17,384 bases of DNA from the IMG/VR virus record IMGVR_UViG_2675903433_000036, positions 1 to 17,384 of that record; one strand, written 5' to 3'. The DNA is from a virus. Its lineage: Duplodnaviria; Heunggongvirae; Uroviricota; Caudoviricetes. Under the pieces are notes generated by a model that worked only from the letters and a program-made list of their open reading frames with translations, did not search any database and had not been told where the DNA came from. The first letter of the stretch is position 1; the number at the start of each line of letters is the position of its first letter. Both the position numbers and the translations under genes were made by a program. Positions 1 to 17,384 of the stretch are shown piece by piece.

Positions 1-263
1 CCCCGCCAGAACCACAACAAAGTAATACTCCGGGTCTCTGGTGGCGCTGATTACTGTGCCTTCTCCATCCGACGGCTTCACCACAACAGGTGTGCTCACA
101 TCACCTTCTGCGACAATCGCCTGAATAAGTGCTGCGCCATCATCCGTATACGAAGAAAACGGCCCGCCGTATGGTTGCCATCCTTCACGAATTTTTTGAG
201 CAAGTGCATCAGCAAGGTCTGACGGCGACACCGCCCTGACCACATCGTAGTGTTTAAATGCCA
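1..263 (-). CDS. hypothetical phage late-region protein, N-terminal 87 codons only; the gene runs off the window start
   Basis: Open frame from ATG at 263..261 to position 1 with no stop, translating MAFKHYDVVRAVSPSDLADALAQKIREGWQPYGGPFSSYTDDGAALIQAIVAEGDVSTPVVVKPSDGEGTVISATRDPEYYFVVVLAG. Strong SD (GGGAGGA) about 6 nt upstream on the minus strand. Not in the ORF track, presumably because it lacks an in-window stop. Confidence 0.45.
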
Positions 264-457
264 TGAATCCTCCCGGCCGGGATAATATTGTGAGTAAAAT
301 GAGGAGCGGGCTGAAATCCGGAAGTTACAGGACAATGGCAGAAGAGAGACAACAGCCCGCAATACGAAAAAGGCCGCGCTATTGCGCAGAGTGATTACTG
401 TCGGATATTATTCGCCAGCTGAAATATTACTTCACGTTTTGTTGTTTATTCCTTGCC

Positions 458-487
458 GCCCGCGTCTCCCTGCGCGGGCTTTTTTTG
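458..487 (+). terminator. Rho-independent terminator-like hairpin with T7 tract (plus-strand sense)
   Basis: Stem GCCCGCG (458-464) pairs with CGCGGGC (473-479) around an 8-nt loop, followed by TTTTTTT (480-486). No convincing plus-strand gene lies upstream within the window. Confidence 0.3.
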
Positions 488-497
488 TCCATAAGAA

Positions 498-518
498 AGC
501 CCCTCCGGAGAGGGGCTG
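498..518 (-). terminator. hairpin with weak U-tract on the minus strand, convergent with the 458-487 hairpin
   Basis: GCCCCTC / GAGGGGC stem around a CGGA loop; on the minus strand it is followed by TTTCTTAT. Could end read-through from the tRNA-like element. Confidence 0.25.
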
Positions 519-753
519 GAGAGTGGCGCTATGTGCCATTGCATGGTGCCGGGTGCCTCCCGGTGAATTCAGTACCAGCACCTGAATCCGCGATTATCCC
601 ATATACCTACTCGCTGATTGCCCCTCCGCACAGGGGGATTCACCATGCCAGTTTCTTTTAACAAACTCCCCGCAAACCAGACAACAGTCAACCGCCTGAA
701 TTGTGAGACATTTAAAAAAAAGGCCCGCAAAAGCGAGCCAGGGAAAATAAGTG

Positions 754-829
754 TGGCGCGTTGTACTGGATTCGAACCAGCGACCTGGCGATTATGCGTC
801 GCTCGCTCTCACCACTGAGCTAAAGGGCC
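754..829 (-). tRNA. tRNA-Ile2-like (CAU anticodon, ileX/ileZ-like) element, probably a degenerate pseudo-tRNA
   Basis: Minus-strand 76-nt sequence GGCCCTT-TA-GCTC-AGTGGTGA-GAGC-G-AGCGA-CGCATAA-TCGCC-AGGTC-GCTGG-TTCGAAT-CCAGT-ACAACGC-G-CCA has canonical D and T arms (GTTCGAATCC) and a CAT anticodon. The 3' acceptor strand ACAACGC does not pair with the 5' GGCCCTT, and position 33 is G rather than the near-universal U. Confidence 0.45.
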
Positions 830-863
830 GGGAGCAGAATAATAACGGTCCGTAATTAATTCC

Positions 864-892
864 GCAATAAAAAACCCGCTCAATGGCGGGTT
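864..892 (-). terminator. Rho-independent terminator downstream of the Q-like gene (tR'-like by position)
   Basis: Minus-strand sequence ACCCGCCATTGAGCGGGT hairpin followed by TTTTTTATT, about 85 nt after the stop at 976. Confidence 0.5.
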
Positions 893-975
893 CTGGTAAA
901 GTTCATGCGCTTGGTTCGCCTCGCGATACAGCTTTGCGAAGCGTACCGGAATTGAAGCAGTTTATGCGTAAAAAA

Positions 976-1518
976 TCAAGCTATTTTTTGAGCAAATGAT
1001 TCTCGCATGGGAATATATAGGACATACTCAGCAACTGCCAACCAATTAGCAATTCGCTTTTCGCATGTGCTAAAACACCACTCTGGGTACTGTTCGTTTA
1101 ATAACTCGGCCATCCTTCTCTTACTCATCCCTCGCCCCACATAACGCTGACTCAGGACATTTAGTAGTCCTGGATGATCCGCCAGAACTTCACCTATAAC
1201 ACTATCAATTTTTAGTGCCTCTGCATCAGTGCAGTGAGTTAACCAGCTTTTTTGCTTTCCTTCGATCATCTCACGCAAAAATGCTTCCAACTCTGGTTTA
1301 TCAATTCCCGCTTTTTTCAATCTGCGCAGGGCTTCATTGATGGCTGTTTTTGTCAATTTTTTGGATGTCAGCAACTGATTAAACATATTCCCTGACCTGC
1401 CGCCACCAATGTACGACCAGCGCCCCCACATACGCAGTTTCCCCTGTATCCAGATGCTTTCCAACGTATTGAGTCGAAGATGTTCTCCGCTTTTTCCGGT
1501 ATTTGTTGGGTAAATCAT
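976..1518 (-). CDS. putative late-gene antiterminator (Q-like); assignment by position only
   Basis: 180 aa from the internal ATG at 1518..1516 (MIYPTNTGKSGEHLRL...), which overlaps the upstream stop as ATGA. The ORF-track version (220 aa) would overlap the upstream gene by 120 nt. It is the last gene before a terminator and the tRNA-like element, the position Q occupies in lambdoid and Stx-type phages. No motif recognised with certainty. Confidence 0.4.
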   Translation of the reverse strand: MIYPTNTGKSGEHLRLNTLESIWIQGKLRMWGRWSYIGGGRSGNMFNQLLTSKKLTKTAINEALRRLKKAGIDKPELEAFLREMIEGKQKSWLTHCTDAEALKIDSVIGEVLADHPGLLNVLSQRYVGRGMSKRRMAELLNEQYPEWCFSTCEKRIANWLAVAEYVLYIPMRESFAQKIA

Positions 1519-1805
1519 AGAATGCCTTTCTCCCTCCAGATTTCCTGTGTGCGGAAAACGCCCTCCGCGTGCATCAGGCGCAATTCTTCTTTGGTGTAAT
1601 CGCTGGTTTTTACCCGCCCGTCGATTAAATCGTGGCACGAGCTACAGGCAATTGCCGCCTGCATATCGTGTGGTTTTGTCGCTGTTCCACACGTCCCCGC
1701 CAGCCTGTAATGCGCCAGCACGGACGTTTCGGGATTGTGATTGCAGTAGCCAGGAATTCTGACTGTACACATCTGACCTTTTGCCGCTTTACGTAAATCC
1801 ACCAT
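1515..1805 (-). CDS. Cys-rich small nin-region protein (DUF1364/YbcO-like, putative metal-binding)
   Basis: 96 aa (MVDLRKAAKGQMCTVRIPGYCNHNPETS...CSSCHDL...) with five spaced Cys residues. Start overlaps the upstream stop (TAATG); stop overlaps the next ATG. Confidence 0.6.
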   Translation of the reverse strand: MVDLRKAAKGQMCTVRIPGYCNHNPETSVLAHYRLAGTCGTATKPHDMQAAIACSSCHDLIDGRVKTSDYTKEELRLMHAEGVFRTQEIWREKGIL

Positions 1806-2404
1806 TACGCAAACTCCAGTAGCTGCGCGGCCACATTTTCGACTTCCTCCGGAGAGGAAAATTTACGGAACAGGATCCAGTTCCACAGCACATTCAGTAC
1901 AGATTTATAAACCTGCTGAAACACGGTTTCGTCCATGTTCGCAAATGCGATAGATTTTGCCCTGCGCCCACGACTACCGTCCGGATAAAAATGCTCGGTG
2001 TAAAATCCGGCCTGAATGGTTACCCACTCGCGGAAAGCCTCAAACGACTTTAGCAATGCCGTATCCCGGGTTCTGCGTGTCGCAACGGTATTCAGATATT
2101 GCTCTGCGGCATCACTCAGGGCTGGAGTATGTTCCCGACCTACTGACTCGCACAGGTAATCAACGAATTCTGAAACCAGTTTTCGTTCTCGAGGCGTGAT
2201 CGCCCCACCGACCGGAGTCCAGTAATCGAATCCCAGTTGCAGGAGTTTGAAAAAACGCTTGTGGAATGCGTAGTTACGAACGCGCTTAAAATCAGCGTGT
2301 ATCCACTCGCCTATTTTGATTTGATGCAGAAAATCACAACTCTCCGGTGTCGCCGGGAGAAGTAAACCAGAAGAAGTTTGTTTGACCAGTTGTATATGCG
2401 CCAT
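1805..2404 (-). CDS. nin-region protein of unknown function (DUF1367/YbcN-like, tentative)
   Basis: 199 aa from ATG at 2404..2402 (MAHIQLVKQTSSG...) with SD GGAG 8 nt upstream. The ORF-track start at 2416 is a TTG without SD. Confidence 0.55.
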   Translation of the reverse strand: MAHIQLVKQTSSGLLLPATPESCDFLHQIKIGEWIHADFKRVRNYAFHKRFFKLLQLGFDYWTPVGGAITPRERKLVSEFVDYLCESVGREHTPALSDAAEQYLNTVATRRTRDTALLKSFEAFREWVTIQAGFYTEHFYPDGSRGRRAKSIAFANMDETVFQQVYKSVLNVLWNWILFRKFSSPEEVENVAAQLLEFA

Positions 2405-2460
2405 TGCTATCTCCAATGGCGCTGTAGGTTGCCAGTTGTTCAGGCTGGCTTACGAATTAT

Positions 2461-2890: not shown

Positions 2891-3046
2891 TTACTCCTCA
2901 GGTTCGTAAGCTGTGAAGACAGCGACCTCCGTCTGGCCGGTTCGGATTCGTACCTCGCAGAGGTCTTTCCTCGTTACCAGTGCCGTCACTATGACGGTTA
3001 AACAGATGACGATCAGGGCGACTAACATCGCCTTTTGCTGCTTCAT
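2891..3046 (-). CDS. hokD: Hok/Gef-family membrane toxin (type I toxin), HokD/RelF-like
   Basis: 51 aa, MKQQKAMLVALIVICLTVIVTALVTRKDLCEVRIRTGQTEVAVFTAYEPEE: single TM helix plus the conserved C-terminal hok motif, nearly identical to my recollection of RelF/HokD. SD AAGGAG 9 nt upstream of ATG at 3046. The 70-aa ORF-track version is an in-frame upstream extension. Confidence 0.85.
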   Translation of the reverse strand: MKQQKAMLVALIVICLTVIVTALVTRKDLCEVRIRTGQTEVAVFTAYEPEE

Positions 3047-3225
3047 AGCCTGCTTCTCCTTGCCTTTCGGCACGTAAGAGGCTAACCTACGTTTGTGAAG
3101 CATAGATTGGGCCTCAGATTAATGTTAAGCGTCTTGCAGGACGCGTAATGTTAACTGGGGCTTTTCTCTATCTGCCTTTTGGTGTTCATGCCTGAGGCAG
3201 ATAGCCTCAAGCACCCATTATGATT

Positions 3226-9873: not shown

Positions 9874-10070
9874 ACAATTTATTGGATTAATTCAATATTC
9901 TTGCTGTAGGGGTATAGCCGAGGCCACCAAAGCCCGGAGGTGGTGAAATAAAACCGGGCACAACACGAAGGCGCATTTCCGATATCCATAAAGAGTCGGT
10001 CTTGTCTGTTAAATTTAAATGGTGGGAGTGCGCCTCCGGTTGTAAATAACGACATTGCTGTGTGTAGTCT

Positions 10071-10115
10071 TGGCGGCATCAGTTCTACTCCGTGGCTGCC
10101 CTGCCGCCCCTTTTT
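10071..10115 (+). terminator. terminator-like long-loop hairpin (tL1-like) within a 400-bp structured leader
   Basis: GGCGGCA (10071-10077) pairs with TGCCGCC (10103-10109), followed by CCTTTTTAAAG. Confidence 0.3.
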
Positions 10116-10578
10116 AAAGTGAATTTTGTGATGCGGTGAATGCGGCTGAGCGCACGCGGCACAGTTAAAAGCATCAGTGTTATGGGTGGATTATCCGGCG
10201 TTAATTGTTAACTGGTTAACGTCACCTGGAGGCACCAGGCACCGCATCAACAAAGTTCACTTCAGTGATGAAAGGTGAGAGAAAATGATGGATGTAGCTA
10301 TTGAAAACCAGAACGGGTGGAATTATAGTGCACCTGCACCTCATAAAACGGGTGCCGGGATTTGCACCCCGATGATCACTAGAGCGCATAACCGCGCCAA
10401 AGCGTTTTTTTTATGCGTAAAGCGCAGCCACATTCAGATTATGGTGGGGCGTATGGGGCCGTTTTCGGGCGGGCCGGATTCTCTAGTGACCGGTAGTGCA
10501 AACCCTGTACGTCTCACCACCCATGAGATTTGCACCTCCGGTGGTGAGTTTACCAACTTATCACTAGAGGCTGCCATC

Positions 10579-11133
10579 ATGGCTACTATCCCTACCCTTT
10601 CTCACCCTGACGTAACCATCGAAAATGGTCGTGCTGTCACTACGTCTGTTGCAGTTGCAGAGTTTTTCCGCAAGCTGCATAAAAACGTCATTCAAAAAAT
10701 TGAAGCTCTGGAATGTTCCTCAGAATTCACTGAGCTTAATTTTAAGCCAAGTGAATACACCGACTCAACCGGGCGCAAACTCCCAATGTACCAAATCACC
10801 AAAAACGGCTTCGTTTTCCTGGTGATGGGTTTCACTGGCAAAAAAGCCGCTGCATTCAAAGAGGCCTACATCGCTGAGTTCGACCGCATGGAAGCAGAGC
10901 TACGCCAGAATAATACCACTCCCACAAACAAAATCATTCCGGGCGATGGGCGCACTCTGGTTGTTCGCTTCGACAAATTCGGCAACGTCGAATTCACTGA
11001 AACCGTTCCTGATGGCGCTCTCGTCTGTACCCTGGACACTTTCCGCCTTTATCTGGAGAAACAGGGCTGGACTCTTGTAAACCGAAGCGCAATTAAAAAT
11101 ATGACCGTCGAGCAGTTGCTGAGTATTAAATAG
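10579..11133 (+). CDS. Rha-family phage regulatory protein (Phage_pRha domain)
   Basis: Matches my recollection of the Rha domain: AVTTSVAVAEFFRKLHKNVIQKIEAL...ELNFKPSEYTDSTGRKLPMYQITKNGFVFLVMGFTGKKAAAFKEAYIAEFDRMEA. Internal ATG 10579 with SD AGAGG is preferred; the ORF-track start at 10285 adds about 98 compositionally odd, repeat-containing residues. Confidence 0.65.
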   Translation: MATIPTLSHPDVTIENGRAVTTSVAVAEFFRKLHKNVIQKIEALECSSEFTELNFKPSEYTDSTGRKLPMYQITKNGFVFLVMGFTGKKAAAFKEAYIAEFDRMEAELRQNNTTPTNKIIPGDGRTLVVRFDKFGNVEFTETVPDGALVCTLDTFRLYLEKQGWTLVNRSAIKNMTVEQLLSIK

Positions 11134-15424: not shown

Positions 15425-15651
15425 GCGCAGCCATAAAGCTCACAGGAGAAAAACCAGTGCTATACACAAAAGTCAAACCATGTCCGTTTTGTGGTTGTCC
15501 ATCAGTAACGGTGAAAGCCATTTCAGGATATTACCGCGCAAAGTGTAACGGATGCGAATCCCGAACTGGCTATAGTGGAAGTGAAAAAGAAGCACTCGAA
15601 AGATGGAATAAACGAACTACTGGAAATAATAATGGAGGTGTTCATGTATAA
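15415..15651 (+). CDS. ralR: Lar/RalR-like restriction-alleviation protein (zinc-ribbon, CPFCG motif)
   Basis: [47 protein letters not shown] matches my recollection of the Lar family. Start at 15415 or 15421, the latter overlapping the exo stop. Confidence 0.5.
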
Positions 15652-15853
15652 AATTACTGTCACTATTGAAAAGGAAGGTGGCACTCCTACTAACTGGACA
15701 AGATATTCAAAATCTAAATTAACGAAATCAGAATGCGAAAAAATGCTCTCTGGGAAAAAAGAAGCAGGCGTTTCCAGAGAGCAGAAAGTAAAACTGATAA
15801 ATTTTAATTGCGAGAAACTTCAGTCCTCGAGAATTGCATTGTATTCAAATTAA
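15644..15853 (+). CDS. ydaC: small hypothetical protein (YdaC-like, 69 aa)
   Basis: ATG 15644 preceded by GGAGGTG; [35 protein letters not shown]... AT-rich. The ORF-track 92-aa version begins upstream in the overlap with the Lar-like gene. Confidence 0.45.
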   Translation: MYKITVTIEKEGGTPTNWTRYSKSKLTKSECEKMLSGKKEAGVSREQKVKLINFNCEKLQSSRIALYSN

Positions 15854-16148: not shown

Positions 16149-17384
16149 ATGTCTAAATTACCAACAGGTGTCGAGATTAGAGGTAGATACATTCGCATCT
16201 GGTTCATGTTTCGAGGAAAACGATGTCGGGAAACATTAAAAGGCTGGGAGATTACAAACAGTAATATTAAAAAGGCCGGAAATTTAAGAGCGCTGATAGT
16301 TCATGAAATAAACTCCGGTGAATTTGAGTATTTAAGACGTTTTCCCCAGTCCAGCACTGGGGCAAAAATGGTGACAACGAGAGTCATAAAAACGTTCGGA
16401 GAGCTTTGTGATATCTGGACAAAAATTAAAGAGACAGAGTTAACAACAAACACAATGAAGAAAACAAAATCACAATTAAAAACACTCAGAATAATAATTT
16501 GTGAAAGTACCCCGATATCACATATTCGTTATAGCGATATCTTAAACTACCGGAATGAACTGCTGCATGGAGAAACGCTTTACCTGGATAATCCAAGATC
16601 CAACAAAAAAGGAAGAACCGTGCGCACAGTTGATAACTATATCGCCCTGCTCTGTTCGCTGTTGCGTTTTGCGTATCAGTCGGGATTTATATCAACCAAA
16701 CCATTTGAAGGAGTAAAAAAATTACAGCGAAACAGAATAAAGCCTGATCCGTTATCTAAAACAGAATTCAATGCATTAATGGAAAGTGAAAAAGGACAGA
16801 GCCAGAACTTGTGGAAATTTGCCGTTTACTCAGGACTTCGTCACGGGGAACTGGCAGCTCTGGCGTGGGAGGATGTGGATCTCGAAAAGGGAATAGTGAA
16901 TGTCAGAAGAAACCTGACGATACTTGATATGTTCGGTCCCCCAAAAACAAATGCCGGGATCCGGACAGTAACACTACTGCAGCCTGCTCTTGAAGCACTG
17001 AAGGAGCAATACAAACTGACCGGGCATCATCGCAAAAGCGAAATCACCTTTTACCATCGGGAGTACGGCAGAACCGAAAAGCAAAAACTGCATTTTGTTT
17101 TCATGCCCAGGGTGTGTAACGGAAAACAAAAACCTTATTACTCGGTAAGCAGTTTGGGGGCAAGGTGGAATGCAGCAGTAAAACGTGCTGGTATTCGCCG
17201 TCGTAATCCGTACCATACGCGGCATACTTTTGCCTGCTGGCTGTTGACGGCAGGAGCGAACCCGGCATTTATAGCCAGCCAAATGGGGCATGAAACTGCG
17301 CAGATGGTGTATGAAATTTACGGTATGTGGATTGATGACATGAACGACGAACAGATAGCCATGTTGAATGCGCGGTTATCGTAG
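16149..17384 (+). CDS. int: tyrosine site-specific integrase (phage integrase family)
   Basis: 411 aa; C-terminal catalytic region with R...HxxR...Y spacing (NPYHTRHTFACWLL...GHETAQMVYEIYGMW). AT-rich, terminal position; the stop codon is the last triplet of the window. Confidence 0.9.
   Translation: MSKLPTGVEIRGRYIRIWFMFRGKRCRETLKGWEITNSNIKKAGNLRALIVHEINSGEFEYLRRFPQSSTGAKMVTTRVIKTFGELCDIWTKIKETELTTNTMKKTKSQLKTLRIIICESTPISHIRYSDILNYRNELLHGETLYLDNPRSNKKGRTVRTVDNYIALLCSLLRFAYQSGFISTKPFEGVKKLQRNRIKPDPLSKTEFNALMESEKGQSQNLWKFAVYSGLRHGELAALAWEDVDLEKGIVNVRRNLTILDMFGPPKTNAGIRTVTLLQPALEALKEQYKLTGHHRKSEITFYHREYGRTEKQKLHFVFMPRVCNGKQKPYYSVSSLGARWNAAVKRAGIRRRNPYHTRHTFACWLLTAGANPAFIASQMGHETAQMVYEIYGMWIDDMNDEQIAMLNARLS

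Follow-up and report, generated by a model that had tools for sequence, protein, structure and literature searches.

What is the tRNA-like sequence that lies behind a Q-like antiterminator gene in this lambdoid prophage, and can it still work as a tRNA gene? The stretch of DNA that was analysed (hereafter the window; 17,384 nucleotides from a virus of the Caudoviricetes) carries on its minus strand, at positions 829-754, an element of 76 nt, which a first-pass annotation had described either as a decayed remnant of the ileZ-argN-argO arrangement of 933W-type phages or as the relic of an attachment site. The results presented here uphold the former proposal and give it a precise form, a fusion of the 5′ part of ileZ to the 3′ part of argO across a 176-bp deletion. 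Very probably, the element is a non-functional tRNA pseudogene derived from one deletion within the phage-borne ileZ-argN-argO cluster.

The minus strand at 829-754 reads GGCCCTT-TA-GCTC-AGTGGTGA-GAGC-G-AGCGA-CGCATAA-TCGCC-AGGTC-GCTGG-TTCGAAT-CCAGT-ACAACGC-G-CCA. Its D arm and T arm (GGTTCGAATCC) are canonical, with a T loop of the GTTCRAATC type, the anticodon arm is intact and a 3′ CCA is present. The D, anticodon and T arms of the RF00005 cloverleaf are all recognizable, with a posterior probability of 1.00 throughout the Rfam alignment and A27-C43 as the one non-standard pair, which intact ileZ has as well. The CAT anticodon occupies window positions 796-794 and is preceded by a G at position 33 (window 797), where U33 is invariant in elongator tRNAs. 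Moreover, the acceptor strands GGCCCTT (5′) and ACAACGC (3′) form two of seven pairs, 1-72 (G-C) and 7-66 (U-A), and a search 5′ of the element for the complement of ACAACGC (GCGTTGT), as an alternative acceptor pairing, found none. The length, strand, arms, anticodon, G33 and unpairable acceptor strands reported from the sequence alone were thus all confirmed.

Since the 3′ end of the element, ACAACGC-G-CCA, resembled the end of another tRNA, the locus was compared with annotated phages. Stx-phage records match the window in two pieces, and the approximately 330 bases that they hold over ileZ, argN and argO have an equivalent of approximately 157 bases in the window. The resemblance to ileZ that had been noticed earlier proved to be close, as positions 1-56 are identical to ileZ of 933W and Nil3 at 55 of 56 sites, the sole mismatch being T33 to G, whereas positions 50-76 correspond to the final 27 nt of argO from the same two phages without any mismatch (27/27). 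Point mutations turning AAGGGCC-A-CCA into ACAACGC-G-CCA, with no contribution from argO, are very unlikely in view of this perfect match. The element has in this way the CAU anticodon of tRNA-Ile2 within an ileZ-type body, but the ileZ acceptor helix and A73 are missing, with ACAACGC and G73 of argO in place of AAGGGCC and A73. The acceptor strands do not pair because they derive from different genes. The anatomy, parentage and breakpoint of the chimera can be read directly from these alignments, which divide it into three parts:

781-829, minus strand: ileZ-derived part (positions 1-49), with the 5′ acceptor strand, D arm, CAT anticodon arm, variable loop and first T-stem base; T33 to G at 797.
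774-780, minus strand: crossover interval CTGGTTC (positions 50-56), common to the T arms of ileZ and argO.
754-773, minus strand: argO-derived part (positions 57-76), with the remaining T loop and stem, the 3′ acceptor strand ACAACGC, the discriminator G and CCA.

Taking 933W and Nil3 as references, the breakpoint is confined between position 49, where the G is specific to ileZ, and position 57, where the G is specific to argO. Relative to the intact cluster, 176 bp are missing with 933W as the reference and 174 bp with Nil3, and the deleted stretch comprises the 3′ end of ileZ, a spacer, argN, a second spacer and the 5′ 50 nt of argO. At a distance of 176 bp, the T arm of argO (GGTCACTGGTTCGAATCCAGT) repeats that of ileZ (GGTCGCTGGTTCAAATCCAGC) in the same orientation, with 18 of 21 positions in common. 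If a crossover, or a slip during replication, took place within the CTGGTTC shared by both T arms, it would remove the 3′ third of ileZ, argN as a whole and two-thirds of argO from its 5′ side, leaving a single 76-nt unit made of the ileZ body and the 3′ strand of argO. The deletion left the adjacent genes, the promoter and the two terminators unaffected. The route may have been slippage or short-homology recombination, for instance via the RecE/RecT-type genes of the prophage itself. In this line, an ileZ allele whose T loop reads TTCGAAT (G57) occurs intact in 28-29 genomes, including pig ETEC/STEC, and if the parental ileZ carried this allele the crossover interval would extend over 766-780, with 15 nt of perfect identity instead of 7. 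Such an origin recalls the tRNA pseudogenes that deletions produce from paralogous genes, where neighbours are also fused across a short repeat (here the T arm), the cloverleaf core is left with acceptor strands that do not match, and invariant positions take further hits (here U33, and G18 in some copies). No description of an ileZ::argO fusion or of a chimeric prophage tRNA was found in the literature searched.

The neighbourhood of the element shows the layout of the tRNA module of Stx phages, and its features are the following:

1808-2416, minus strand: NinB-like DUF1367 gene, before YbcO.
1518-1805, minus strand: YbcO gene, 5′ of the Q-like gene.
979-1518, minus strand (stop codon 976-978): Q-like late antiterminator gene, 180 aa, identified with Pfam and PHROG.
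869-894, minus strand: tR′-like intrinsic terminator, AGAACCCGC-CAUUGA-GCGGGUUUU followed by a U-run, 3′ of the Q-like gene.
839-867, minus strand: predicted homologue of the tRNA promoter pT, aligned with pT of 933W.
714-739, minus strand: intrinsic terminator normally found 3′ of argO, GGCTCGC-TTTT-GCGGGCC followed by T8, from terminator scan and fold.
487-677, minus strand: STnc100 sRNA gene (Rfam RF02076, 138 bits, full length), a neighbour lying outside the pseudogene.
1-264, minus strand: start of a DUF1737/DUF6645 gene (Pfam DUF1737, 48.4 bits), which runs off the left end of the window.
16149-17384: integrase gene, about 15 kb from the element.

On the minus strand the order is therefore DUF1367, YbcO, Q-like gene, 894-869 hairpin, pT homologue, chimera, 739-714 terminator, STnc100 and DUF1737/DUF6645, of which DUF1367, YbcO and the Q-like gene follow the usual order of a nin region. 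The Q-like product matches Pfam DUF1133 at 343.8 bits and Phage_antitermQ at 30.1 bits (cut-off 26), as well as PHROG 753, 'anti-termination protein Q-like' (E = 1.5e-76). The hairpin at 894-869 has 9 bp and −13.1 kcal/mol (z = −3.27) and the same sequence is found in L077, a relative with an intact cluster; a simple terminator scan did not list it. The promoter homologue coincides, column by column in the alignment, with the 933W feature 'pT; putative tRNA promoter' (L001, 1503-1531), and consists of a −35 box TTGCGG (867-862), a 17-nt spacer and a −10 box TATTAT (844-839), with 9 nt to tRNA position 1, as in 933W. A consensus promoter scan did not flag this site, whose −35 box is weak, and GTTATTAT is present in all four haplotypes found upstream of chimeras and, among the eight that are commonest upstream of intact loci, in seven. 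At the other side, the counterpart of the 714-739 hairpin in the 933W alignment is the terminator that the record places behind argO (L001, 1806-1829). The early annotation had placed its candidate 3′ of a Q-like gene and terminator within a range, 744-900, which indeed contains the element, its promoter and the upstream terminator. The search for arg-tRNA remnants at 520-750 that it suggested was negative with Rfam: the argO remnant lies inside the element and 487-677 is the STnc100 gene. More generally, no tRNA remnant other than the element was detected by Rfam (E ≤ 10) on either strand of window positions 300-1100.

Compared with the clusters of 933W, VT2-Sakai and Nil3, the locus has the same position after Q and tR′ and before the late genes, the same homologous pT and argO terminator as flanks, and STnc100; in place of three intact tRNA genes it retains one chimeric unit, with 176 bp gone and T33 changed to G, its antiterminator is a Q-like protein of the DUF1133 type and not the Q of 933W, and no stxAB genes separate the terminator from STnc100. 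In 933W, STnc100 (L001, 3198-3332) comes right after stxB, whereas here it directly follows the tRNA terminator, and for this reason stxAB seem to have been inserted behind the argO terminator, ahead of STnc100, the window representing the toxin-free state of the module. The STnc100 sequence of the window is identical to that found in Nil3 3′ of its intact cluster. The DUF1737/DUF6645 gene aligns with the starts of genes annotated as 'DUF6645 domain-containing protein' in PV15-279 and 2013C-3264, and its truncation at codon 56 was considered and rejected, as ORF 96-362 is in another frame than the ATG at 264. Between STnc100 and this gene, GC-rich hairpins with T-runs at 458-479 (plus strand) and 498-517 (minus strand) form a convergent or bidirectional terminator pair. 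The only sigma-70-like site given by the scan, TTGGCA-18-TATATT at 1012-1041 on the minus strand, falls within the 3′ end of the Q-like gene; placed approximately 130 nt 5′ of the hairpin at 894-869, this site is a pR′ candidate, whose leader would be short and terminated, like that of other lambdoid phages. A comparative paper on pR′ (PMC6266700) makes no mention of tRNAs.

Relatives with intact clusters were found for both sides of the deletion. In L077, from IMG/VR, the end of the Q gene, the terminator and the promoter are those of the window and three tRNAs called by ARAGORN follow, while in Nil3 three intact tRNAs are followed by the exact downstream sequence of the window through all of STnc100. 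Since both parental layouts exist, the window can be described, from these alignments, as an intact module from which it differs by the deletion and by T33G. Cassette exchange has a hot spot in the tRNA slot behind Q. Apart from the ileZ-argN-argO cluster, ileZ also heads the series ileZ-Lys(ttt)-Thr(tgt)-Gly(tcc), stands alone, or is followed by Lys and Arg (L030, L064, L065, L066, L081, L117 and others). The ileZ-argN-argO cluster also shows a second type of alteration: in 21 IMG/VR loci ileZ and argO are 176 nt apart and argN is uncalled by ARAGORN (L035, 2719-2818; L049, 1846-1945). In L035 and L049 the argN slot keeps the acceptor strands CCGCCAT...ATGGCGG, with unrelated sequence in the region of the anticodon arm and an altered T loop, and could be either a pseudogene or an unrecognised tRNA-like variant. 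The upstream haplotype of the window is also present in 13 loci with intact ileZ, L035 and L049 included. Finally, L077 shows a 5-nt duplication, CCACA, right behind the CCA of argO (about 820-830; alignment columns 442-446).

Of 5,426 complete E. coli genomes, 162 carry the same chimeric junction and 160 the exact 76-mer, so that the allele occurs in 3% of the genomes; 21 IMG/VR contigs carry the chimera as well, and this recurrence speaks against an artefact. Among the exact-match genomes listed, many are STEC, with serotypes O157:H7, O111:H8, O145 and O45:H2, and these make up most of the named ones. The junction pattern had no match in a collection with one genome per species. The locus of the window itself is absent from the complete-genome set, where, over 3 kb, the top full-length match has 92% identity and the top partial match to the 3-kb locus reaches 98.1% over 94%. 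In the data searched, G33 goes together with the junction: all 21 IMG/VR chimeras have it, whereas T33 is found in the 120 intact ileZ copies (120/120) of the same database. Complete genomes gave neither a match reaching 99% identity for an intact ileZ with G33 nor a full-length exact match for a chimera with T33. In contrast to this constant core, the flanks vary, with two promoter haplotypes upstream (933W-like and window-like) and three haplotypes downstream; the third of these, of the L077 type, combines the CCACA duplication with a 28-nt insertion after the terminator and is carried by three chimera copies. Intact clusters, too, are found with each of the promoter haplotypes and with at least two of the downstream ones, and the chimera of PV15-279 has other genes upstream, encoding a DNA methyltransferase and a different antiterminator.

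Because G33 always accompanies the junction, yet the flanks differ, the simplest reading suggests one ancestral deletion allele, which was then moved among co-resident lambdoid prophages by recombination. Repeated deletion at the same T-arm repeat is possible in principle. As for the uniformity of the allele, 111 of 118 intact ileZ copies are identical, compared with 160 of the 162 genomes for the 76-mer, and since intact ileZ is equally uniform, the uniformity of the chimera more likely reflects recency than constraint. Two chimeras, L008 (position 4504) and L016, have an additional G to A change at position 17, the first G of the D-loop GG (canonical G18), which is consistent with decay, two copies being too few to show relaxed selection. 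In this regard, the first-pass annotation had also spoken of a recombination scar at the early/late boundary. The scar is real, namely a deletion in the tRNA cluster, but it does not mark the boundary, since the borders of the module lie separately, at the −35 box of the promoter upstream and beyond the tRNA terminator downstream.

Could the element be nevertheless a working gene for tRNA-Met or tRNA-Ile2, perhaps with unusual boundaries? RefSeq annotation would have it so, because in every exact-match genome among the approximately 40 listed (of about 160) PGAP reports a 71-nt 'tRNA-Met' over tRNA positions 6-76 without any pseudogene flag (for instance L003, 2377-2447, and L004, 20006-20076), and the Rfam tRNA model RF00005 returns 37.3 bits (E = 8e-5 for the whole window), above its gathering score of 29 bits, for a sequence with D, anticodon and T arms and the 3′ CCA intact. 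The similarity to tRNA anticipated in the first-pass annotation is therefore genuine and much stronger than chance would give, but this match is local, covering model positions 7-64 with the acceptor stem outside, and amounts to about half the score of the full-length parents (ileZ, 72.5 bits; argO, 68.1; argN, 54.8), and the annotated 71-nt span starts inside the 5′ acceptor strand, as expected for a truncated model match. A functional tRNA gene would be called by a dedicated finder and score like its relatives; ARAGORN called no tRNA with any boundaries in the whole window and none in the 21 other chimera loci, which makes 22 independent copies. The fold of the element (−24.6 kcal/mol, z = −0.97) is no better than that of shuffled sequences, compared with −33.5 kcal/mol and z = −4.0 for ileZ. 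With no acceptor helix, no upstream GCGTTGT to replace it and U33 changed to G, a working tRNA has a minute chance of being the right explanation. TilS and IleRS read the acceptor-stem pairs and the discriminator, and from established tRNA biology we infer that, because of the unpaired acceptor strands, G33 and G73, the element should be neither processed nor lysidinylated nor charged as tRNA-Ile2. In the prophage, all three rare-codon tRNAs (AUA, CGN and AGA/AGG) are gone. The loss of ileZ in one prophage would be buffered, because genomes often hold many ileZ-like copies, in up to 12 places per genome and in 8-9 in PV15-279, a redundancy under which selection would be relaxed. As the promoter homologue and the terminators are untouched, an unprocessed and inert RNA may still be made from the remnant.

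The remaining explanations grant that the element is no tRNA gene and differ in where it came from or in what it does now. Prophage attachment sites are a known source of tRNA fragments, such as the pseudogenes ptwF and pawZ of E. coli K-12, and these share with the present element a partial tRNA in or near a prophage and inconsistent behaviour of tRNA callers. They are, however, 3′ segments of host tRNA genes placed at prophage ends by site-specific integration, whereas here an internal deletion affected a phage cluster. That the element is a host tRNA gene fragment at an integration or excision junction would fit the frequent integration of phages into tRNA genes, which leaves partial copies, and also a preprint (10.64898/2026.05.13.724894) in which tRNA-like matches near prophage sRNAs of the STnc100/Pas kind are taken for insertion-site remnants. 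At this locus such a reading does not hold and its chance is practically nil: the kept part is the 5′ 56 nt, about two-thirds of a phage tRNA, followed by the 3′ 27 nt of a second phage tRNA, when integration remnants are normally 3′ segments at prophage ends; its parents, ileZ and argO as found in 933W and Nil3, are phage genes; both flanks are collinear with intact phage clusters; and the element sits between the Q-like gene and the late region, some 15 kb inside the prophage from the integrase. The attachment-site relic that the first-pass annotation had kept as an alternative was rejected on the collinear flanks, both of them phage sequence, and the internal position. A slim chance is left to a remnant transcribed from pT, or as part of the Q-antiterminated late transcript, and recruited for a new role as tRNA-like RNA, be it a decoy or sponge of a tRNA-binding enzyme or nuclease or a processing signal. 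The intact promoter homologue and terminator, the preserved D, anticodon and T arms, and an allele present in 3% of complete genomes across several prophage backgrounds would agree with it; but hitch-hiking with the conserved flanking module explains the spread of the allele, the fold is no more stable than that of shuffled sequences, L008 and L016 have an extra change at the canonical G18, and none of the 280 deposited phage genomes with ileZ carries the chimera. In its most explicit version, a stable uncharged tRNA-like RNA of approximately 110 nt would have been kept and spread in EHEC-type prophages because it is functional, for instance by titrating out an enzyme that modifies tRNAs or a defence nuclease that targets them, or by marking where the late transcript is processed, a conjecture from sequence that we regard as very improbable.

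For the non-functional ileZ::argO pseudogene, the value lies in annotation and bookkeeping, as the scar is an ordinary one and reveals no new mechanism. The 'tRNA-Met' label appears to be a systematic over-call across approximately 160 complete E. coli genomes, which inflates tRNA counts and hides the loss of the rare-codon tRNAs. Moreover, the junction, linked to G33 in the searched data, offers a short marker, simple to type, for a single ancestral event, and because the allele has moved between prophage backgrounds it can serve to follow how co-resident lambdoid prophages recombine. TRNA-like matches near sRNAs of the STnc100 type should also be regarded with caution, since they may be phage cargo genes, as at this locus, and not integration-site remnants.

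The rest of the window is a lambdoid early region with replication, repressor, Cro-like and RecE/RecT-type recombination genes, together with RalA. The antitoxin RNA RalA, of the Rac-type RalR/RalA system, is found at 15650-15828 on the minus strand (219.6 bits), close to the integrase end, and a sok RNA of the hok/sok type at 3041-3216, also on the minus strand (120.1 bits), adjoins a 70-aa ORF at 2891-3103. Three further Rfam matches follow one another on the plus strand, DicF (10059-10109), IsrK (10336-10412) and C4 antisense RNA (10437-10524), overlapping or preceding a 282-aa ORF at 10285-11133. By analogy, the 10059-10524 region resembles a c4-controlled antirepressor arrangement of the P1/P7 type beside a DicF locus.
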